Source: an uncultured Chloroflexota bacterium (lineage in GTDB: Bacteria > Chloroflexota > Dehalococcoidia > Lucifugimonadales > UBA826). Taken from it: a stretch of 64,000 nt of DNA. Each line of letters opens with the position of its first letter. Positions within the stretch are counted from its first letter, which is position 1. Position numbers and translations under genes: made by a program. Location: NCBI GenBank assembly GCA_913048525.1, contig CAJWWP010000002.1, positions 12,426-76,425 on the forward strand. Reading direction: 5' to 3'. Under the pieces are notes generated by a model. The model saw only the letters and a list, made by a program, of their open reading frames with translations, was not told where the DNA came from and ran no database searches. Below, one piece after another: positions 9,966 to 36,161 of the stretch.

Positions 9966-10895
9966 GTGCCATACGCTGCAAAAATCCAAGACTTTATAGA
10001 TAAATATCCAGCTTTAACAGCTATTGGGAACACGCCTTTAGTGGAGCTTGATATTCCCCAAGAGATAGCTGATATAGGAGAAGCTTCTATTTATGCAAAA
10101 TTTGAGCATCTGAATCCAGGTGGCTCAATTAAAGATAGACCCGTTCTTCGTATGCTTGCTGAGGCAATAATAGACGGAACATTGACCCCAGATAAAATAA
10201 TACTGGATGCGACTTCTGGTAACGCAGGGATAGCGTATGCGATGATTGGGGCTATACTCGGATATCCCGTTGAACTTGTTATGCCAGAGAACGCTAGCGA
10301 AGAACGGAAAAAACGTTTAGTAGCTCACGGTGCTAATTTGGTTTTCACAGATGCTCAGAAAGGCTACGATGAAGCTTTATATGAGGTGAAACGGAGGTTC
10401 CAAAAGAACCCTGATAGATACTTTTATTGTGACCAGTACAGCAATTTAAATAATCCGTTGGCACATTATGAAACCACTGCAGTAGAGCTGCTGGATCAAG
10501 CGCCATTTATTACACATTTCGTTGCTGGGGTAGGTACTGGAGGAACAATTAGTGGGATAGGTAGACGCCTCAAGGAAACAAATCCTGACATACAGGTCAT
10601 TTGCATAGATTTTGAGGAATGGCCAGGAGTCGAGGGGCTTAAACCTTTAGGCGAGGGTCATATCATTCCTGAAACATTTGATAGGTCAGTAGTTGATCAA
10701 ATGTTACACATAGATACGCTTAGAGCCTATGAGGTGTCTAGCTTAATGGCAGAAAAAGGTATATTCGCTGGACAATCCTCTGGGGCTTACTTATTAGGAG
10801 CAATTGAAGTTGCGAGTTCATTAAAATCTGGGAATATAGTTACGATATTCAATGACATTGGCGAGCGTTATTTTTCGACTTCTATGTGGGATTGA
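9966..10895 (+). CDS. PLP-dependent cysteine synthase (CysM/CysK family)
   Basis: IGNTPLV, NPGGSIKDR, ATSGNAG, GVGTGGT, GQSSGA. Confidence 0.9.
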   Translation: MPYAAKIQDFIDKYPALTAIGNTPLVELDIPQEIADIGEASIYAKFEHLNPGGSIKDRPVLRMLAEAIIDGTLTPDKIILDATSGNAGIAYAMIGAILGYPVELVMPENASEERKKRLVAHGANLVFTDAQKGYDEALYEVKRRFQKNPDRYFYCDQYSNLNNPLAHYETTAVELLDQAPFITHFVAGVGTGGTISGIGRRLKETNPDIQVICIDFEEWPGVEGLKPLGEGHIIPETFDRSVVDQMLHIDTLRAYEVSSLMAEKGIFAGQSSGAYLLGAIEVASSLKSGNIVTIFNDIGERYFSTSMWD

Positions 10896-10943
10896 AGTAT
10901 ACCGTTTGAATATAAAGAATAGTGAGACAAGGGGTGAAACGCC

Positions 10944-11618
10944 GTGCAACTTTTAACAGAAGATCAAATAAGATCCCTTAGGAATATTGATACACCCACT
11001 GTAGCCAACGCCGTGGAAACTCATCCTACAAGATCTAATACAGAAGGATTTATGGGTTGGAATATACGGTGCCAGTTCCCAGACCTTGGGGTAATGGTTG
11101 GACAGGCTGTAACCGCCACTTTTAATACAACTACCACTGGTAAACCGCGCAGCAGGAGTCTGTGGTATGAGTGCTTACGGGCCATAAATGACATGCCCGT
11201 TCCAGTGGTTATTGTTGCCAAGGATGTTGGGCCCAGACCTTTCCATGGATGTCATTTTGGGGATGGTATGGCCAATGTAGCAAAAAGAGTCGGGGCAGTA
11301 GGTCTAGTTACAGATGGTGGCGTGAGAGATGTAGAAACGGTTCATGACATGGGATTTCACATGTTTTCAGTGGGCTTAGTTCCTGCACACGGAAATTTTG
11401 GACTTGATGAAACTATGGTTCCGGTAGAAGTAGGCGGTGTTCTGGTCAATCATGGAGATGTGGTACATGCCGATATGAATGGGGTGGTGGTTTTCCCGGT
11501 AGATCTGACAGATTATGTGATAGATGAGTCAGCAAAAGTCACCAAGCGTGAATCTGATCAATTCGATTGGGTCAAGAGTGAAGATTTTTCGCTTGAGGAG
11601 ATGATTCAGAGAGGTTAA
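10944..11618 (+). CDS. RraA/HMG-aldolase family protein
   Basis: DTPTVANA, FGDGM, VTDGGVRD, GDVVHADMNGVV. Confidence 0.82.
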   Translation: MQLLTEDQIRSLRNIDTPTVANAVETHPTRSNTEGFMGWNIRCQFPDLGVMVGQAVTATFNTTTTGKPRSRSLWYECLRAINDMPVPVVIVAKDVGPRPFHGCHFGDGMANVAKRVGAVGLVTDGGVRDVETVHDMGFHMFSVGLVPAHGNFGLDETMVPVEVGGVLVNHGDVVHADMNGVVVFPVDLTDYVIDESAKVTKRESDQFDWVKSEDFSLEEMIQRG

Positions 11619-11647
11619 TTCCTTGCGATCAATCCCAATCATCTCCC

Positions 11648-24058: not shown

Positions 24059-25387
24059 TCAAACCACTAAGCCCATTGGATTTTCAAGTAATCGCTTGAC
24101 TTCGATCAGAAATTCAGCCCCTTCTACACCATCTACGATCCTATGGTCTGCGGATATTGTAGCGTTCATGATCTTAGCTATCGCTAGCTCACCATTCCTA
24201 GCTACAGGTTTATCCGCAACGGTACCAACGGCTAGTACCGCACTTTGAGGTGGGTGAATAATCGCAAGAAAACTAGTTACATCAAACATTCCGAGGTTAC
24301 TTATGGCGAACGTTCCTCCAGTATATTCCTGGTTGTTTAATGTTCCACTAGCTGAACGTTGGGCAAGGTCTTTAATCATTTGTGACAAATCTCGCAGAGA
24401 CTTGCCACCACAGTCGAGAATAGCGGGAACTATCAACCCTTCTTCTTCAGCAATTGCTACGGCGATGTTTATCGTACTGTTAAATTGAATACCGTCGTCT
24501 TGATAGTAGGCATTAAACTTGGGATATTTTTTGAGAGACTCAATACAAGCTTTTACGATCAGGTCGTTGACTGTTATCCGAACTCCTTCATCCGATAATT
24601 GGTCATTAACTTGTCTGCGCAAAACCATTGCTTTGGTCATATCTACTTCTGCGGATACGTAGAAATGCGGTTTTTCTGTCTTGCTTTTTACCGTTACCCT
24701 AGCAATCTGCTGTCTCATTCGACTGAGGGGCTCTTTGCCGCTAGACATTGAGCCTACTGAAGGACTTATCGGTTCACCACCAGTCTGATTAATCTCGCCA
24801 GCAGATTGTTCAGTGAGTTCTGTGGAATCCATTTCAAAACTTATTTCTTGGGTTGTAGTGCTCGAGGATGGATCAAAAGTCTCCACATCTTTTTTTGTGA
24901 TCCGTCCTCCAGGTCCAGAGCCGGCCACCTGGCCTAAGTCTATACTCATCTCATCAGCTATCCTGCGAGCCACTGGAGTTGCCAATATTCGTGCGACGGG
25001 CACACTATCTGCGGATTCCTGGGGGATACTTCTAATAGGCGCCTGGTTCTCATGTAACTCAGAGTTTGTATTTAATTCATTTTCACTGTCTGAGTCAGAA
25101 TCAGATAACTCATCTAAGTCAGTGGAGGAAGTCAAATTAGTATCCTCGCCCTCCAATCCCACTAGTGCTATCGTTTCTCCAACAGGTACCACAGATCCCT
25201 CACTGGCAACGATCCTGAGTAGGACTCCTTCAGCCTCCGACTCGAATTCCACCACAGCCTTGTCAGTCTCAATTTCTGCGACGGGTTCATTTCGACCAAC
25301 TTTTGATCCTTCCTCTTTCAACCAACGCACCACAGTGCCTTCTTCCATGTCATAGCCCATCTGTGGCATTTTAAGTTCAGTCGCCAT
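24059..25387 (-). CDS. pdhC: 2-oxoacid dehydrogenase E2, dihydrolipoamide acetyltransferase (single lipoyl domain)
   Basis: EIETDKA lipoyl site, ATPVARRIA..GSGPGGRI, ISNLGMF, DHRIVDG. Confidence 0.9.
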   Translation of the reverse strand: MATELKMPQMGYDMEEGTVVRWLKEEGSKVGRNEPVAEIETDKAVVEFESEAEGVLLRIVASEGSVVPVGETIALVGLEGEDTNLTSSTDLDELSDSDSDSENELNTNSELHENQAPIRSIPQESADSVPVARILATPVARRIADEMSIDLGQVAGSGPGGRITKKDVETFDPSSSTTTQEISFEMDSTELTEQSAGEINQTGGEPISPSVGSMSSGKEPLSRMRQQIARVTVKSKTEKPHFYVSAEVDMTKAMVLRRQVNDQLSDEGVRITVNDLIVKACIESLKKYPKFNAYYQDDGIQFNSTINIAVAIAEEEGLIVPAILDCGGKSLRDLSQMIKDLAQRSASGTLNNQEYTGGTFAISNLGMFDVTSFLAIIHPPQSAVLAVGTVADKPVARNGELAIAKIMNATISADHRIVDGVEGAEFLIEVKRLLENPMGLVV

Positions 25388-25425
25388 CTTATTAACGTCT
25401 CCAGCCTAATCCTTTTAAATGATAG

Positions 25426-26403
25426 CTACAGTCCAAAATTGTAAGTAACCGATTCAACTACCCAGTCTGCGCTGGGTATCATTGCTTGCTCTATATTTCT
25501 TGCATATGGTGCGGGGACGTCAGGACCGTTAATTCTCAGAACAGGACCATCAAGGTCATCGAAGGCGGCCTCTTGGATATTACTGGCTATAGTTCCGGAG
25601 AATCCACCTGTTTTCCATGTTTCTTCAACTACGACAGCGCGATTGGTTTTCTTAACTGACTCAACAACTGTTTCCAAATCAAGAGGGGATAAAGTGCGTA
25701 AGTCGATAACCTCGGCAGAAATACCAAGTTTATCTAATTTTTCGGCAGCTTCCTCTGCCACACGTACCATTCCCGAATATGACACAATGGTTACGTCCTT
25801 TCCAGGTCGAGCTATTCTGGCTTGTCCAAGAGGTATTTCATAGTATTCTTCCGGTACGTCTCCTCTTACACGGTATAGTAACGAATGTTCAGCAAATATA
25901 ACTGGATTATTATCTTTGCGGCATGTGCGAAAGAGCCCAAGAGCATCTTGCGGTGTTGCCGGCACAACAACACGTAGGCCTGGAATCGAGGCATACCAGT
26001 TCTCAAAACTCTGGGAATGTGTAGCCGCTAATTGTCCACCTCCACCAGTTACTGTTCTTATTATGAGGGGAACACTTAGTTGGCCATTAGACATATAAGA
26101 CAGCTTGGCGGCATGATTGACGATCTGATCGATTGCTACGAGAGAAAAATTAATAGTCATAATTTCTACTATGGGTCTCATCCCAATCATGGCGGCCCCG
26201 GCTCCAGCACCTACGAATACCGCTTCTGCAATGGGAGTGTCTCGTATTCGGTCTTCTCCGTATTCTTCGAGAAACCCTCTGGTAACAGCATATGGCCCTC
26301 CGTAGGCACCAATGTCTTCACCCATCAGAAAAGTCCGATCATCTGTGTCTAAAGCCTCTCTAAGAGCCTTAGCCACAGCATCTCTAAGAATCATCTCCGT
26401 CAT
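25426..26403 (-). CDS. pdhB: pyruvate dehydrogenase E1 beta subunit
   Basis: GEDIG, DTPIAE, ATHSQ, IDLRTL. Confidence 0.9.
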   Translation of the reverse strand: MTEMILRDAVAKALREALDTDDRTFLMGEDIGAYGGPYAVTRGFLEEYGEDRIRDTPIAEAVFVGAGAGAAMIGMRPIVEIMTINFSLVAIDQIVNHAAKLSYMSNGQLSVPLIIRTVTGGGGQLAATHSQSFENWYASIPGLRVVVPATPQDALGLFRTCRKDNNPVIFAEHSLLYRVRGDVPEEYYEIPLGQARIARPGKDVTIVSYSGMVRVAEEAAEKLDKLGISAEVIDLRTLSPLDLETVVESVKKTNRAVVVEETWKTGGFSGTIASNIQEAAFDDLDGPVLRINGPDVPAPYARNIEQAMIPSADWVVESVTYNFGL

Positions 26404-26409
26404 AACGTA

Positions 26410-27399
26410 CTATGCCTCCGGAGCCGCGTAAATATTTGTATAAAGTGACTCAAGTAGAGGTTCCGGACTTTGCTCGGCGAATTCAACAGCGATTTGAATC
26501 TTGGAATCTATTTCTTCATCAATGCGAGAAATATCCTCACTCGTAAGCAATCCTTCATCGAGGCAGAGTGCTTTAAATCTGTCAATCGGGTCCCGGTTTC
26601 TTTGCTCTTCAACTTCGGAATTTGCCCTGTAATTTGTTGGGTCTGCCATCGAGTGGCCATGATATCTATAGGCCATTGACTCTATGAAGACGGGTCCATT
26701 TCCTTCACGCACTTTCTTGATACCTTCTATCACGGTTTCCCTTACCAGTAAAATATCCATTCCGTCTATTTGGACGGCGGGAATATTGTAAGGCTCAGCA
26801 GCATTGAAGATGTTTTCTCCGCCTGCATTAGACTTATTTACCTCTGTGCCCATTCCGTAGAGGTTGTTTTCTAACATGAAAATAATTGGTAACTTCCAAA
26901 GAGATGCGAGGTTCATGGCCTCATGGAATTCCCCTTCTTGAACAGCGCCGTCACCAAAAAAACACATAACCACGCTGTCTTTTTCTTCCTTCATTTTTAT
27001 CCCTAAAGCCATACCTACGGCGAGGGGGAATTGACCTCCAACAATTGCATGGCCGCCCATGAAATGTTTTTCGGCGTCGAAGAGATGCATCGATCCGCCT
27101 TTACCTCCACTTGTCCCAGTGGATTTACCACAAAGTTCTGCCATTGCTTTATTGGGATCTATGCCTCTAGCCAAAGCGTGACCATGGTCACGGTAGTGTC
27201 CGATTATGTAATCGTCCTCTCTCAGGTTAGGAATGGCACCGACTGCAATGGCTTCTTCTCCAATGTACGTATGGAGGAAACCTCGCACTATGCCTCGCTG
27301 ATACAGCCGCTCAGTTGCTTCCTCAAATCTACGTATTAGAAGCATCGTTGAATAAATATCCAACGCTTGGGCGGTTTCAATATTAATCGTCGTTGTCAT
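26410..27399 (-). CDS. pdhA: pyruvate dehydrogenase E1 alpha subunit
   Basis: GFLH, GKGGSMH, GDGA..NN TPP motif, YRYHGHSMADP. Confidence 0.92.
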   Translation of the reverse strand: MTTTINIETAQALDIYSTMLLIRRFEEATERLYQRGIVRGFLHTYIGEEAIAVGAIPNLREDDYIIGHYRDHGHALARGIDPNKAMAELCGKSTGTSGGKGGSMHLFDAEKHFMGGHAIVGGQFPLAVGMALGIKMKEEKDSVVMCFFGDGAVQEGEFHEAMNLASLWKLPIIFMLENNLYGMGTEVNKSNAGGENIFNAAEPYNIPAVQIDGMDILLVRETVIEGIKKVREGNGPVFIESMAYRYHGHSMADPTNYRANSEVEEQRNRDPIDRFKALCLDEGLLTSEDISRIDEEIDSKIQIAVEFAEQSPEPLLESLYTNIYAAPEA

Positions 27400-27401
27400 A
27401 T

Positions 27402-28793
27402 TTAAATATGAATGGCCTCGCCCATGGTGTCTAAGGCAGCCTCTTTTACCATCTCTGAAATTGTTGGATGCGGGTGTACAAGCAGGCCTATTTCTGTGGC
27501 AGTTCCTTCTAGCATTTTGGTTATAGAAAGTTCGCCGAGGAGCTCTGTCACCTCTGCCCCAATCATATGGGCGCCAATTATTTCTCCGATTTCCTGATCG
27601 ACAATGAGCTTCACCATTCCGTCTGTTTCACCTAATGCAATAGCCTTGCCGCTAGCTGAAAATGGAAATCTCCCAACTTTTATATCAATCCCTTGGTCGC
27701 GAGCTTGCGCTTCACTTAGACCAAAACTAGCAACTTGTGGTTTACAGTAGATTGCTCTTGGCATCAAAGAATAATCTAGTTGTTCAGGATCTAATCCAGC
27801 GATGTATTCTACTGCGACTATAGCTTGGGCAGAAGCCACATGGGCGAGGAGCATTTTCCCTGTGACATCTCCAATAGCGTATATGCCTGAGACATTGGTC
27901 TCCATGTTCTCCCCAACCGGTATAAAGCCCCTATCCGTGGTAACACCGGTGTTTTCGAGGCCTATACCGTCAGAGTTCCCCTGCACTCCGACTGCTACTA
28001 GTACCTTGTCACATTCTAAATTTGTCTCTGTTCCGTCTGACGATATGTTCACATTAGCGACACCGTCAGAGACCGTTATTGAATTTACTGAAACTCCTGT
28101 GAGGGATTTAACTCCATGGTCGCTAAACGACTTTTCAAGTGAGGCACTAATTTCTTCGTCCTCATTTGGAACCAGCCTATCCATTAATTCCACAATTGTT
28201 ACGTCAGATCCGTAGGATCGGTATACGTGGGAAAATTCAACGCCCGTTGCTCCCCCTCCGACTATAATAATTCTTGGAGGTGCTTCACGTAGTTCTAATG
28301 CGTCCCGGCTATTCATAACAACATCGTGGTCGATTGGCATGGATGGAATATCTCTCTGCCTTGCCCCGGTGGCGATAATAATGTTTTCCGAAGTGATAGT
28401 CTCAGAATCTCCATCTGGGGATTCCACAGAAATAGTTTTTGCGTCTATTAGAGATGCTTTTCCGGTTAGATGTTCGACATTATTTTTTCTAAGGAGGTAC
28501 TGGACTCCAGTCGTGAGTTTGTCTACAACCTGTCTACTTCGATCAATTGCTTTGCCATAGTCGTAGTTGAGGTTGTCATAGGATATGCCGTATTCGTTTG
28601 CATCTTTTATGAGATTCAGTACCTCTGCATTTCTGAGGAGCGATTTACTGGGTATACAACCCCAGTTAAGACATATGCCACCAACTGTATCGCGCTCTAT
28701 GATGGCTGTATTGAATCCCAATTGTGCAGCTCGGATAGCTGCCACATAACCACCTGGCCCCGCCCCAATAATAACTACTTCATAGTCTGCCAA
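27402..28793 (-). CDS. lpdA: dihydrolipoyl dehydrogenase E3
   Basis: GAGPGGY, GGICLNWGCIPSK, HPHPTISE. Confidence 0.95.
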   Translation of the reverse strand: MADYEVVIIGAGPGGYVAAIRAAQLGFNTAIIERDTVGGICLNWGCIPSKSLLRNAEVLNLIKDANEYGISYDNLNYDYGKAIDRSRQVVDKLTTGVQYLLRKNNVEHLTGKASLIDAKTISVESPDGDSETITSENIIIATGARQRDIPSMPIDHDVVMNSRDALELREAPPRIIIVGGGATGVEFSHVYRSYGSDVTIVELMDRLVPNEDEEISASLEKSFSDHGVKSLTGVSVNSITVSDGVANVNISSDGTETNLECDKVLVAVGVQGNSDGIGLENTGVTTDRGFIPVGENMETNVSGIYAIGDVTGKMLLAHVASAQAIVAVEYIAGLDPEQLDYSLMPRAIYCKPQVASFGLSEAQARDQGIDIKVGRFPFSASGKAIALGETDGMVKLIVDQEIGEIIGAHMIGAEVTELLGELSITKMLEGTATEIGLLVHPHPTISEMVKEAALDTMGEAIHI

Positions 28794-31068: not shown

Positions 31069-31179
31069 AGACGGGTTCCTCAAAAGTTATATTTGGGGAT
31101 AAAAACCTAAGAAAATCAATTATCTATTCAGCCGCAAGAAGGTATTAACGGCTAAAAATGATTCAGAATATTGGCGGGT

Positions 31180-31608
31180 TCAGCCGGAGGGCTTGAATTT
31201 CAGCAAAGTAAAGTCTTCATCTATATCTTCAAAAGTTGCAATGACATTCATATCCACTTGTACGTTTTCAGGGTCGCATTCCAAAATGTTTGAAGGTATT
31301 TTTGGTCCTTCAGCGAGTTCAATTATGGCGTAAATGTGACCGTTGGCCGATTGGAAAGAAGGATGAACAGATTGCTTGACGTGTGTATAGCTATACACAC
31401 GTCCCTTTCCAGATACTTTTGTCCAGCTTAAATCCATAGACGTACATTCTGGACAAGCTTCTCGAGGATAAAAGAAAATACTTGAACATGAATTGCATTT
31501 GGGCAATATCAGTTCGTGTCTTTTGGTGGCTTCCCAGAAAGGTTTTGACAAATCTTCATGCAATGGGACCGGCAATGGCTTGTCGTACGCTGAACTTTCT
31601 TTTGTCAT
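31180..31608 (-). CDS. Zn-ribbon/OB-fold DUF35 protein (thiolase partner)
   Basis: PFWEA, CNSC..FYPREACPEC, SGKGRVYSYT, IELAEGP. Confidence 0.9.
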   Translation of the reverse strand: MTKESSAYDKPLPVPLHEDLSKPFWEATKRHELILPKCNSCSSIFFYPREACPECTSMDLSWTKVSGKGRVYSYTHVKQSVHPSFQSANGHIYAIIELAEGPKIPSNILECDPENVQVDMNVIATFEDIDEDFTLLKFKPSG

Positions 31609-31671
31609 ATCGTTTCCCCAACCATGGCCATTTCCCAGTTTGCAAAAATTTGGATATTCGGTTTTCTGTGG

Positions 31672-32841
31672 TTAGAGTGTGTCCTCGGACCCGAGGACCA
31701 GCGAGCACATTTCACTCGCTGTACCGCCTCAACCATTAACTAAACACAAATCGTCTTTCTGAACCTGTCTGCTGCCAGCCTTCTCCATTATCTGACGGGC
31801 TCCTTCAATAACATGGCGAAACCCCCCCGCGAGTCCTGGCTGACCTCCAGATAGTTGCCCGCCGTCAGTGTTGATAGGAAATTCACCCTTGTATGTTGTA
31901 TCCGTGGACTCGTAAAAAGGTCCCACCTCACCCTTTCCTACCAGTCCAGCATCTTCGAGGCACACGGCCGCGAGTATGGTGTATCAATCGTAAAACTCCG
32001 CGAATTCCATATCGCTCGGTTCATATCCCGCCATAGCAAGTGCCCTCCTGGCGGAGTCAATCGCTGGAGTTTCGGTGAATTTATCACGTTGCCATATGTT
32101 TGCTTCTCCCTGTTGTAACCCTACTCCCAAAATATAGGCGGGCCTTTTAGAGATAGTTTTGGCTCTCTCAGGTGAGGTTATGATCAATGCGGCAGCACCA
32201 TCACATGGCATTACAGATTCTAGTAGCTTTAACGGTTCGTTGATGTATCTTGAGTTAAGGACATCTTCTTTAGAGGCAGGCTGTCCGTTGAATACAGCAT
32301 TAGGGTTATCTTGTGCATTGAATCTTTGGTCGGCAGCCATTTTTGCCATCTGTTCTTCCGTAGTACCATACTCATGCATATGGCGTCTGTATATGAGTCC
32401 ATAACCGGTATTGGCTCCAGGAGCCATACCATATGGTTCTTCCCACTCAGACCGTACGCTGGGCCCCGCAGCTCCCCTTCCAGCGATTCTTCCCTGACGT
32501 TCTCCTTCTTCTCGAGAATTTCCCATGACAACTAAGGCAGTGTTGCATATGCCTGCGTTTATAGCAGCTGCGGCTACCATAGTTGCGGTTGCCCCGCTAG
32601 CGCCTTGCATGGCAACGCCGGTAGCAAACTGAGGCTTGATTCCGATGTATTCCGCAGTCTGCGGTGGAGCGGCGACACCATCGGTGACCAGGCCATCAAT
32701 GTCCTCTTTTTTTAGACCGGCGTCGCTAAGCGCCAACGCTGTGGCTTCGGCACATAGGCCCATCAAGGAACGACCTTGGTGAACACGTCTTGTTGGGACC
32801 TCACCAATTCCGACAATTGCCGCTTTTCCTCTTAGACTCAT
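31672..32841 (-). CDS. thiolase-family (SCP2/Ltp2-like) protein, 389 aa, with two in-frame UGA codons (codons 286 and 371); candidate selenoprotein
   Basis: One frame: MSLRGKAAIVGIG...PCDGAAA...EFYD*YTILAAVCLEDAG...INTDGGQLS...CLVNG*GGTASEMCSLVLGSEDTL-TAA; the ORF track splits it into 31984..32841 and 31729..31965. Confidence 0.85.
31699..31728 (-). promoter_or_regulatory. candidate SECIS element for UGA371
   Basis: After the UGA: GGCGGUA-CAGCGAGU-[GAAAUGU]-GCUCGCUG; 8-bp stem, loop +16..+22. Confidence 0.6.
31950..31983 (-). promoter_or_regulatory. candidate SECIS element for UGA286
   Basis: After the UGA: UACACCAUAC-UCG-C-GGC-[CGUGU]-GCC-U-CGA-AGAUG; loop starts at +18. Confidence 0.5.
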
Positions 32842-32932
32842 CTTAACCTGACCTTGTCACAAACAGCTCGAGTTGATAAATGCAACACCGCTTCGAATCT
32901 TACTACATATGGTGTATCCGGGATTTGTATTC

Positions 32933-34712: not shown

Positions 34713-36161
34713 TTATGAGGGGTTTTCTGATGCTCGGCTTCTATAGATATCCTGCGCCTCACGAAACAGGGTTTCTATTTCTTGACGTTGGTAATCGTTG
34801 TAAAATCGTCCTTTTCTACGAACCCACTCTAAGGATTCTTCTATTTGTTGCGCGAATTTGAGACTTGCATCGGTTTTTTTAGCGGAAGCTAAGCCAGTCT
34901 TTACGTATATAGGACTTGTGTGAGCGAATTGAGGTTGTAAATAGCTGTCTCTAAAGGAGCTAAACAGCCTTGCCGCTATCCAACCGTCGAATTCTAAATT
35001 CACGTCCATTTTGAAGATCCCCTTAGTGGAACCATCGGGGTATTTTTCTCTACCCACGACCTCGCCATTTTGCACTAATTCAATTATCTGAACAGGATAA
35101 TGTGAAGTCCATTGAACCTGCGCGGCGACACTTTCACCACTTTTTGATTGGATTTCGTCTCCTGGGTTACTGTCGCCAACTTGTATCTTTAGTGAAGGGC
35201 CGTTTGTAATAAAAGTTCGCCCTTTTTTAAATGAATCAAGCCATTCTCCATATTCAAAGTTATTTCCGGTCCATGAGTAGACCCGATTTGATGAGCATAT
35301 GTACCAGTCCGATCCTGTAGAGGCGGGAAGTTTTATTCCTGCGTTTAGCATCTGATAATAAATGTCGTATTCTGTGTCGTTCCAGTAGGGGTCGAATAAA
35401 TTGAAGGCATCAATTTTGCCAAGTGCTGCAGCCACCGGTGCTTCCATACCCTGTCCATTATGACACCATATAACAGTTCCACCTTGCTGATGCGCTACAT
35501 CACATGCATAGGAAAGAGGTGGATAATCGGGCTCAAAGGCATCTACAAGTAATCCCCGACTTAGTGGGTCCACAACGTTGCGTATGTCTAGGAGCATGAT
35601 GTGTCCGTAGCCGATTTCCCATGGTTTCTGGTTATGCCGACTTTCTTCGCCATTTTGTACGTAGTGGTGATCCGAAGAGAAATCGTTCAAGAATCCTATG
35701 GGGTACTTATTAGTGGAATAATTTAAATCCCATCTTTTTAACACGCTAACTGCTGTCATTCGAAGATTTTCTACACGCGGGTCTAAATGCAGCCGTTCGT
35801 CAGGCCTATTCTCCTTTTCGTCGTAATGTATGTGGGTATTTCCTGGATGCCAGCCTTGCTCCTGTAAGTCGTTCCAGCGTGAGAGTTCAATTTCAATCGA
35901 CTTGTTACTTTTGGGAGAAGATTCTAGGTAAATTGTTTCGGGGGTGTATTCGGTGCCTCTTTCCACGGTGATTCTTGTGTTTCCCCGATTCACGTCTACT
36001 TCGAAGCTCCCGTCTGTGTAAAAAAATGGCTGGCCAGGGCCCACCTTTTGGATGGCTTTTTTAGGGTGGACGTAATTGCCAGACGAATCAATTACTTGAG
36101 CTTTTGCATTTATGGTGCCACCAGTTTCTGAATCAATAATTGTTGCCCTAATTTTCCCCAT
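34713..36161 (-). CDS. CehA/McbA-type PHP-fold metallohydrolase
   Basis: VERGTEY, GNTHIHY, GYGH, WCHNG, ASTGSDW, GRTFITNGP, FAHTSPIY. Confidence 0.7.
   Translation of the reverse strand: MGKIRATIIDSETGGTINAKAQVIDSSGNYVHPKKAIQKVGPGQPFFYTDGSFEVDVNRGNTRITVERGTEYTPETIYLESSPKSNKSIEIELSRWNDLQEQGWHPGNTHIHYDEKENRPDERLHLDPRVENLRMTAVSVLKRWDLNYSTNKYPIGFLNDFSSDHHYVQNGEESRHNQKPWEIGYGHIMLLDIRNVVDPLSRGLLVDAFEPDYPPLSYACDVAHQQGGTVIWCHNGQGMEAPVAAALGKIDAFNLFDPYWNDTEYDIYYQMLNAGIKLPASTGSDWYICSSNRVYSWTGNNFEYGEWLDSFKKGRTFITNGPSLKIQVGDSNPGDEIQSKSGESVAAQVQWTSHYPVQIIELVQNGEVVGREKYPDGSTKGIFKMDVNLEFDGWIAARLFSSFRDSYLQPQFAHTSPIYVKTGLASAKKTDASLKFAQQIEESLEWVRRKGRFYNDYQRQEIETLFREAQDIYRSRASENPS

Follow-up and report, generated by a model that had tools for sequence, protein, structure and literature searches.

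Active-Site UGA Codons, Almost Certainly Decoded as Selenocysteine, at Two Positions in a Thiolase-Fold Protein Family of Dehalococcoidia

Enzymes of the thiolase fold differ in where they carry the cysteine (Cys) that serves as acid and base. In human T2 thiolase, Cys413 of the CxG motif is described as the acid/base residue and Gly415, two residues on, as the oxyanion hole; in SCP2-thiolases, the acid/base Cys is described as relocated to an HDCF motif. The nearest characterised enzyme to the protein considered here is CtSal of Comamonas testosteroni, reported as a bile-acid (steroid) side-chain retro-aldolase that binds the DUF35 domain of CtShy (Rolfe et al. 2025, PMC12329534). In the YDCY motif of CtSal, Tyr302 is given as the catalytic base and Cys304 as the acid, and the C304A, C304S and C304H variants are inactive. 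Gln347 and Gln352 flank this Cys, Gly391 and Gln161 form the oxyanion hole, and a Gly stands in the place of the nucleophile; the enzyme is presented as an aldolase without covalent catalysis (PMC12329534). Herein, we describe a gene for a related protein in a 64,000-nucleotide stretch of DNA (the window) from an uncultured Chloroflexota bacterium of the class Dehalococcoidia (assembly GCA_913048525.1, contig CAJWWP010000002.1, positions 12,426 to 76,425). Its reading frame contains two UGA codons, and sequence comparison indicates that both are almost certainly read as selenocysteine (Sec, U) at two active-site positions.

Translation of the minus strand at 31672-32841 gave a single frame of 389 codons, closed by TAA (31672-31674). 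An earlier note on this DNA, made from the letters alone, had described one frame broken solely by two TGA codons, and the translation bore this out: codons 286 and 371 are the only internal stops, and both are TGA. The gene and its two codons are located as follows.

31672..32841, minus strand: coding sequence of the predicted thiolase-fold selenoprotein, 389 codons plus TAA, with putative Sec at codons 286 and 371; Pfam Thiolase_C_1 match at 6e-44.
31984..31986, minus strand: UGA codon 286 in EFYD-UGA-YTIL (Y284-D-U286-Y287), almost certainly read as Sec; equivalent to CtSal Cys304 and to the HDCF Cys of SCP2-thiolases.
31729..31731, minus strand: UGA codon 371 in LVNG-UGA-GGTAS (N369-G-U371-G-G373), almost certainly read as Sec; column of the acid/base Cys in the classical CxG motif.

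A listing of open reading frames (ORFs) under genetic code table 11 splits this frame into pieces of 285 amino acids (31984-32841) and 78 amino acids (31729-31965). The rest of the window is densely coding under the same table. TGA therefore usually ends translation in this organism, which rules out a general reassignment of TGA or an alternative genetic code. A near-identical stretch was present in 13 public marine runs (at least half of the sampled words). Both TGA codons were spanned, with no difference there, by contigs of DNA run X5 and of RNA libraries X14 and X15; contigs from RNA libraries are evidence of presence, not proof of transcription. These independent marine contigs, together with the conservation described below, rule out an assembly error or a private mutation, an objection that the earlier note had raised against its own proposal.

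Conservation was followed in the 40 nearest genomes using the read-through protein, with C in place of U, as the query. Orthologs at 87-96% identity contained two TGA codons (9 rows in 8 genomes), orthologs at 82-84% identity contained one (10 rows), and paralogs at about 38% identity contained none. Genome G032, from a different family, carried two copies at 56-59% identity with one TGA each. Column 371 was TGA in 19 of the 20 closest orthologs, which belong to the same family of genomes; the contig of the remaining one (L040) ends before this column, and all close orthologs that reach it have TGA there. At column 286, the 20 listed ortholog loci showed TGA in 8 and TGC or TGT in 12. In every locus parsed, a single TGA was always at column 371 and a second TGA always at column 286. 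Across the class, 77 of 401 genomes had a copy at E<=1e-90. Among the matches listed (149 rows without the source genome, counted by hand, with 18 further rows beyond those listed), at least 52 had two TGA codons, at least 71 had one, and at least 26 had none. The TGAs were retained across divergence down to 47% identity within these 401 genomes. The same two columns thus hold TGA across genera and families, in agreement with what the earlier note had expected of true recoding.

The genome also contains the machinery for Sec. The source assembly is 87% complete, with 96 contigs and 28 tRNAs found, and its contigs encode SelD (378 bits), SelA (540 bits) and SelB (355 bits), all above curated cut-offs. 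The selD gene has an in-frame TGA of its own at CAG-U-ASK. With the tRNA-Sec of a relative as the query, the 5' half of a tRNA-Sec gene (model positions 1-48, anticodon loop CUUCAAA) was found at the extreme end of contig C76 (G000:C76:5497-5543; L111 1501-1547), and the 3' part inside contig C3, right after a tRNA-Thr (G000:C3:22192-22252; L110 1501-1561). This split suggests an assembly break or a chimera. Complete tRNA-Sec genes (66-70 bits) were found in four of five relatives that carry the TGA gene. Class-wide, selA occurred in 300 of 401 genomes (a tally that takes in the unpublished G284). A comparison of two tables placed it in 46 of the 48 genomes that have a TGA copy of the gene, all but G056 (71% complete) and G130. 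The genes on which the earlier note had made its proposal depend are therefore present, namely, selA, selB, a Sec-containing selD and a fragmented tRNA-Sec. As a separate observation, selB (G000:C11:8401-10242, minus strand) adjoins, divergently, a classical thiolase gene (10461-11621, plus strand).

Hairpins resembling a selenocysteine insertion sequence (SECIS) follow both UGA codons.

31955..31973, minus strand: SECIS-like hairpin, 10 nucleotides (nt) after UGA286; stem of 7 base pairs (bp) with one C.U mismatch, apical loop CGUGU.
31699..31721, minus strand: hairpin A, 9 nt after UGA371; 8-bp stem, loop GAAAUGU.
31681..31698, minus strand: hairpin B; 7-bp stem, loop GGUC, ending 6 nt before the stop codon.

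Hairpin A is the likeliest SECIS for UGA371. The 60 nt after this codon fold with a minimum free energy (MFE) of -25.7 kcal/mol (z -3.16), and only 2 of 200 shuffled sequences fold as well. Among 46 distinct sequences of the UGA371 region, 85% of pair cells were standard pairs, compared with 31-53% when the partners were slid; the structure counted came from a single-sequence fold, and the counting leans towards that structure. In the helix of hairpin A, 77.7% of cells were paired and three pairs had changed on both sides. For hairpin B, 94.1% of cells were paired, and pair 36-49 was UA in 24 and CG in 14 distinct rows. The pairing of hairpin B also survives a protein-altering change, GUC/GAC to GUU/AAC (Asp to Asn). 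Three divergent loci (L041, L078 and L103) have a hairpin at the same spot after UGA371 despite a different sequence. After UGA286, hairpin pair 16-30 was CG in 11 and GC in 9 distinct rows. Codons 290-296 were invariant at the nucleotide level in U286 orthologs only, with 1-4 codon variants each in C286 orthologs, and the loop CGUGU is common to this hairpin and the selD hairpin of the same genome. A search of Rfam with positions 31100-32900 of the window gave no match.

Purifying selection on the protein persists beyond both TGA codons. In 16 orthologs of the same length, the ratio of nonsynonymous to synonymous change (pN/pS) was 0.114 for codons 1-285, 0.077 for codons 287-370 and 0.106 for codons 372-389; the relaxed selection that the earlier note had named as a sign of decay was absent downstream of either codon. 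Other runs showed 11 strain differences inside the gene, of which 10 were synonymous (including those at codons 306 and 381) and 1 was a TAA to TAG change of the stop. The equal downstream pN/pS and the synonymous strain variants argue that the sequence after each TGA is translated. In the same orthologs, the last 18 codons had a synonymous divergence of 0.34, down from 0.78, and this drop points to an added constraint on these codons at the RNA level.

For the protein itself, NCBIfam returned only 'acetyl-CoA acetyltransferase / thiolase domain' models below their cut-offs, with 27.7 bits against a cut-off of 240 for the classical thiolase model TIGR01930. The closest solved structure was 9MYR, CtSal with its DUF35 domain (E 1.7e-79 over residues 1-383). 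In the alignment to this structure, with numbers counted by hand, Y284, U286, Q329, Q334 and G373 correspond to Tyr302, Cys304, Gln347, Gln352 and Gly391 of CtSal, and U371 aligns with Thr389. Y284 is invariant in the family alignment, where column 286 is Cys or Sec. The earlier note had aligned UGA286 with the motif Cys, and both its match to Cys304 and the TGC or TGT codons of orthologs agree with this assignment.

That note had left the exact register of UGA371 to an alignment. A profile-profile comparison with hhalign, using 32 family members and 11 classical thiolases of related genomes (probability 94%, E 1.5e-7), placed U371 exactly on the Cys of CxG, two residues before the oxyanion-hole Gly373. 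The same comparison put Gly80 on the nucleophilic Cys, Y-D-U-Y on N-E-A-F with Tyr284 on the Asn, and Gln334 on the His of GHP. As aligned, the two alternative acid/base seats known from the superfamily would each be filled by a chalcogen in this protein, and the nucleophile seat by none. Because the nucleophilic Cys is replaced by Gly80, these residues identify the predicted protein as an aldolase-like relative and not a thiolase. It belongs with the CtSal / SCP2-thiolase-like branch of the fold. With that Cys absent, the NEAF Asn replaced by Tyr and the GHP His replaced by Gln, thiolytic cleavage is not expected. From the thiolase/aldolase label of the earlier note, the thiolase fold and the aldolase-like character are retained and the assignment as a thiolase is dropped. 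A classical thiolase ortholog elsewhere (TIGR01930; L121, G011:C69:673-1833, also G001:C7:1-1113) has one in-frame TGA as well. It was rejected as a Sec candidate: the codon stands where all other orthologs have an Arg (PVN-TGA-YHMG versus PVNRYHMG) and is probably a CGA to TGA error or a mark of a pseudogene.

The states of columns 286 and 371 were then compared across the family. Among 68 distinct sequences, 29 were U/U, 24 C/U, 8 C/N and 7 A/N. On a quick maximum-likelihood tree of these rows, rooted with three paralogs, no fewer than 3 changes were needed at column 371 and no fewer than 6 at column 286; of these 6, at least 4, read off the tree, were exchanges between C and U. Sec371 marks a clade of 60 rows (98 by the SH-like approximate likelihood ratio test, SH-aLRT), within which L092 and the A/N group have gone back to Asn. 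The 79 named loci comprised 35 C/N, 22 U/U and 22 C/U, so that 57 have Cys at column 286. C/N was the form found in Binatia, Deltaproteobacteria, Syntrophomonadaceae, Acidimicrobiia, Anaerolineae and a small number of Dehalococcoidia. Nearly all U/U and C/U loci bear the label Dehalococcoidia or Chloroflexota, with one 'SAR202 cluster'; the exceptions are one metagenome-assembled genome labelled Actinomycetota and one Entotheonellaceae. A Dehalococcoidia clade may have rebuilt the CxG seat with Sec on a YDCY scaffold and then repeatedly upgraded the YDCY seat to Sec. In a distant search with the C-terminal 103 residues against 1.84 billion representatives, 99 of the best 150 hits covered column 371, which was N in 35, T in 12, I in 9, V in 7, L in 7, S in 6 and C in 2, with others in the remainder. 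The two Cys371 representatives are P0146 (Ala286/Cys371) and P0200 (Ser286/Cys371). A 62%-identical database member, P0127, is Asn286/Val371 and has neither seat filled.

A gene for a likely partner follows directly and starts 63 nt downstream of the selenoprotein gene.

31180..31608, minus strand: 142-amino-acid DUF35 protein (Cys4 zinc ribbon plus OB fold); Pfam OB_ChsH2_C at 3e-14 and zf-ChsH2 at 9e-11.

This DUF35 neighbor recurs after the gene in G032 and in G265. Combining these observations, we consider it highly probable that the gene encodes a genuine selenoprotein with Sec at both UGAs, one that most likely acts as a CtSal-like carbon-carbon lyase with a DUF35 partner. Recoding is strongly supported, and we infer Sec as the inserted residue. 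The earlier note had favored double Sec recoding over chance mutations, and conservation, selection, machinery and Sec/Cys exchange all support this preference. By analogy with CtSal, the protein is most likely a Sal-like lyase of acyl-coenzyme A (acyl-CoA) substrates that would work with the adjacent DUF35 protein; its aldolase chemistry, its substrate and the division of labor between the two Sec are inferred by this analogy only. In the proposed mechanism, SelA, SelB, SelD and tRNA-Sec would decode both UGAs as Sec, directed in each case by the hairpin 9-10 nt downstream. The protein would form a dimer flanked by the DUF35 proteins of the adjacent gene, by homology with CtSal. A carbon-carbon bond beside the acyl-CoA thioester would be cleaved or formed by acid/base chemistry of the retro-aldol type with Tyr284 as the base. 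Sec286 would replace the catalytic acid Cys as a proton shuttle, and Sec371 would be a second, more acidic chalcogen beside the oxyanion-hole Gly373, on the classical acid/base Cys spot. The more ambitious form of this proposal, in which the protein is the first selenoenzyme of the thiolase superfamily and runs a non-redox, two-selenol proton relay (or holds a catalytic diselenide in a thiolase fold), is a serious possibility that we hold tentatively.

Several observations weigh against the preferred reading, the first of which concern column 371. Cys at this column was found in no close homolog among the 68 tree rows and 79 named loci, and a word-based region search for it in close homologs gave five matches, none with Cys. 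The column is Asn in 35 of the 79 named loci and Asn or Ser in 7 full-length database proteins. The 2 of 99 distant representatives with Cys and the alignment with classical thiolases argue weakly for a Sec/Cys pairing at this seat. The Cys homologs that the earlier note had looked for are therefore clear at column 286, whereas at column 371 the close forms have Asn and Cys appears in distant ones. At the RNA level, the UGA286 hairpin is weak, as the whole region has an MFE z of +0.83, with 164 of 200 shuffles folding as well, and RNAalifold did not recover the UGA371 hairpins unaided and gave a long-range fold instead. Hairpin B is retained in the closely related Asn371 forms L085 and L087-L091. 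It is therefore not specific to UGA forms, and because it persists in these relatives, it may have a role other than Sec insertion. In the genome, neither Rfam nor ARAGORN gave a complete tRNA-Sec (none above cut-off). In the protein, the oxyanion-hole Gln161 of CtSal aligns, by hand count, with an Ala of the GANTGY segment. In the neighborhood, no hydratase is fused or adjacent and no steroid genes are adjacent in the window, G032 or G265.

The main rival on the chemistry accepts Sec decoding of both UGAs and treats columns 286 and 371 as redox partners that would form a diselenide where both are Sec (U/U) and a selenenylsulfide in the C/U forms, in a thiolase fold turned into a redox or redox-switched enzyme. 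The two columns are the alternative acid/base Cys seats of SCP2-type and classical thiolases, and their side chains should be close. Distant homologs hold Cys at one seat (Ala/Cys, Ser/Cys and commonly Cys/Asn), and only the Sec clade fills both. This either/or pattern mirrors the difference between classical and SCP2 thiolases, which speaks for seats that can stand in for each other in function and therefore lie near each other in space. Sec286 without Sec371 (U/N) occurred in none of the 68 tree rows and none of the 79 named loci. Both Sec were lost on a single branch, as the A/N group has a U/U pair for its sister (support 99). However, this co-loss is a single event, no conserved thioredoxin-like or flavoprotein gene is adjacent in the window, G032 or G265, and all other CtSal catalytic residues are kept, save the Gln161 position noted above. 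A redox pair is therefore doubtful, though it is the most credible of the alternatives; a catalytic diselenide, if true, would be chemistry never seen in the thiolase fold.

Sec371 could instead be a new nucleophile, making the protein a true thiolase or acyltransferase that works through a selenoester acyl-enzyme. The original nucleophilic Cys is Gly80, and Sec371 stands two residues before the Gly whose backbone NH is described as stabilizing the acyl-enzyme in classical thiolases. Column 371, however, is that of the acid/base Cys and not of the nucleophile, the GHP His is Gln, and close relatives work with Asn at 371. CtSal, as the nearest characterised enzyme, was also reported to act without covalent catalysis (PMC12329534). 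We regard a selenoester enzyme as improbable and retain the Sal-like lyase.

Read-through by a tRNA other than tRNA-Sec, a suppressor or near-cognate inserting Trp, Cys, Arg or Gly, would fit the lack of close Cys homologs at column 371, and selenium in the protein is itself deduced from sequence. Against this, TGA is a stop elsewhere in the window, and ARAGORN found no suppressor tRNA among the 28 tRNAs of the assembly (an incomplete set). The full Sec machinery with a Sec-type selD, the hairpins at a SECIS-like distance and the repeated exchange of TGA with TGY at column 286 are likewise at odds with it, and insertion of an ordinary amino acid is very improbable.

Public gene calls do end the protein at these codons. 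Among the best 120 database hits, 87 cover 95%, 22 cover 73% and 7 cover 100% of the query; 109 are truncations, and 6 that were checked end exactly before a TGA column. Nevertheless, a pseudogene, or a true stop at TGA371 or TGA286 with a truncated product and residual similarity downstream, is the least probable explanation of all, given that downstream pN/pS equals upstream, the downstream strain variants are synonymous, the TGAs are kept across such wide divergence, and the tail, which includes Gly373 of the oxyanion hole, can be aligned right up to the end of the CtSal structure.

Apart from the DUF35 gene, the neighbors of the selenoprotein gene vary. They are an alpha/beta hydrolase, DegV and DUF885 here, a Rieske oxygenase and leuCDB in G032, and uvrA and a recombinase in G265. 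Because only DUF35 is conserved nearby, the substrate cannot be inferred from the neighborhood. In the window, a 482-amino-acid ORF with no Pfam match (34713-36161, minus strand) heads a same-strand run that continues with DegV, the alpha/beta hydrolase, the selenoprotein, DUF35 and DUF885. This run ends in a tRNA-Phe/tRNA-Gly pair, and just past the pair lies a complete 2-oxoacid dehydrogenase set (E3, E1 alpha, E1 beta and E2; 24059-28793, minus strand). G265 (L126 6885-10378, G265:C5), from a family of closed genomes, has a tandem arrangement of thiolase-DUF35-thiolase-DUF35. The second tandem copy differs between species, being either Ala286/Asn371 or U/U (L085-L091 versus L094-L095). The A/N second copy, from which both chalcogens have been lost, may be a non-catalytic partner subunit.

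The family is apparently a widespread Dehalococcoidia selenoprotein family of the thiolase superfamily, with one or two active-site Sec, that is undescribed in the literature searched. That search found no thiolase-type selenoprotein; supplements and database family lists were outside its scope, and absence from print is not proven by it. The main text of the BSepDB paper, whose family list stands on its website and in supplements, mentions neither 'thiolase' nor 'acetyltransferase' and includes two Dehalococcoidia in its top ten of bacteria by number of selenoprotein genes (PMC13326102). An NCBIfam scan gave no selenoprotein model that matches the family. Selenium was reportedly found in a Clostridium kluyveri thiolase by Hartmanis and Stadtman in the 1980s, and this enzyme is not a precedent because its selenium is said to have been non-specific selenomethionine rather than UGA-encoded Sec. 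To our knowledge, almost all known Sec enzymes are redox enzymes.

If our reading is correct, an abundant selenoprotein family of dark-ocean SAR202-type bacteria has remained unannotated. Gene callers cut the protein at residue 285 or 370, and it is left in databases as 'acetyl-CoA acetyltransferase' fragments. For chemistry, Sec on a position reported as a proven general acid in CtSal, with a second seat that is Asn in relatives, would offer a test of Sec beyond redox, and natural U/U, C/U, C/N and A/N variants are available for comparison. For evolution, a thiolase-fold active site would have been re-engineered twice. For ecology, the carbon metabolism of an abundant lineage of the deep ocean would have gained a dependence on selenium.

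Compared with CtSal, the protein is alike in the Gly at the nucleophile place, the YD(C/U)Y motif, both Gln, the oxyanion Gly of the C-terminal loop and the DUF35 partner. It differs in the predicted replacement of the catalytic Cys by Sec, of Thr389 by a second Sec and of Gln161 by Ala. Its DUF35 protein stands alone, whereas that of CtSal is fused to a (MaoC-type) hydratase, and no steroid-degradation genes are nearby. TcLtp2-ChsH2(DUF35) (PDB 6OK1, match 5e-44) likewise has a DUF35 partner and a thiolase fold that does no thiolase chemistry, and the trypanosomal SCP2-thiolase-like proteins (TbSLP, YDCF) also have the fold without the chemistry. The Tyr of the YDxF motif is conserved with both. 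In contrast, Ltp2 is described as using Tyr294 and Tyr344 and has His in the motif, Tyr344 aligns with Leu here, and neither Ltp2 nor TbSLP has Sec. With classical and SCP2-type thiolases, the protein shares the fold, the CxG Cys column (U371) and the HDCF Cys column (U286), but no thiolase is known to have a chalcogen on both seats. Finally, it resembles established bacterial selenoproteins, such as the SelD of its own genome, in the in-frame UGA, the candidate hairpin downstream, the Cys orthologs (at column 286) and the predicted dependence on selA, selB, selD and tRNA-Sec. Unlike in those proteins, the fold is one that performs acid/base carbon-carbon chemistry, and one of the two predicted Sec replaces Asn rather than Cys.

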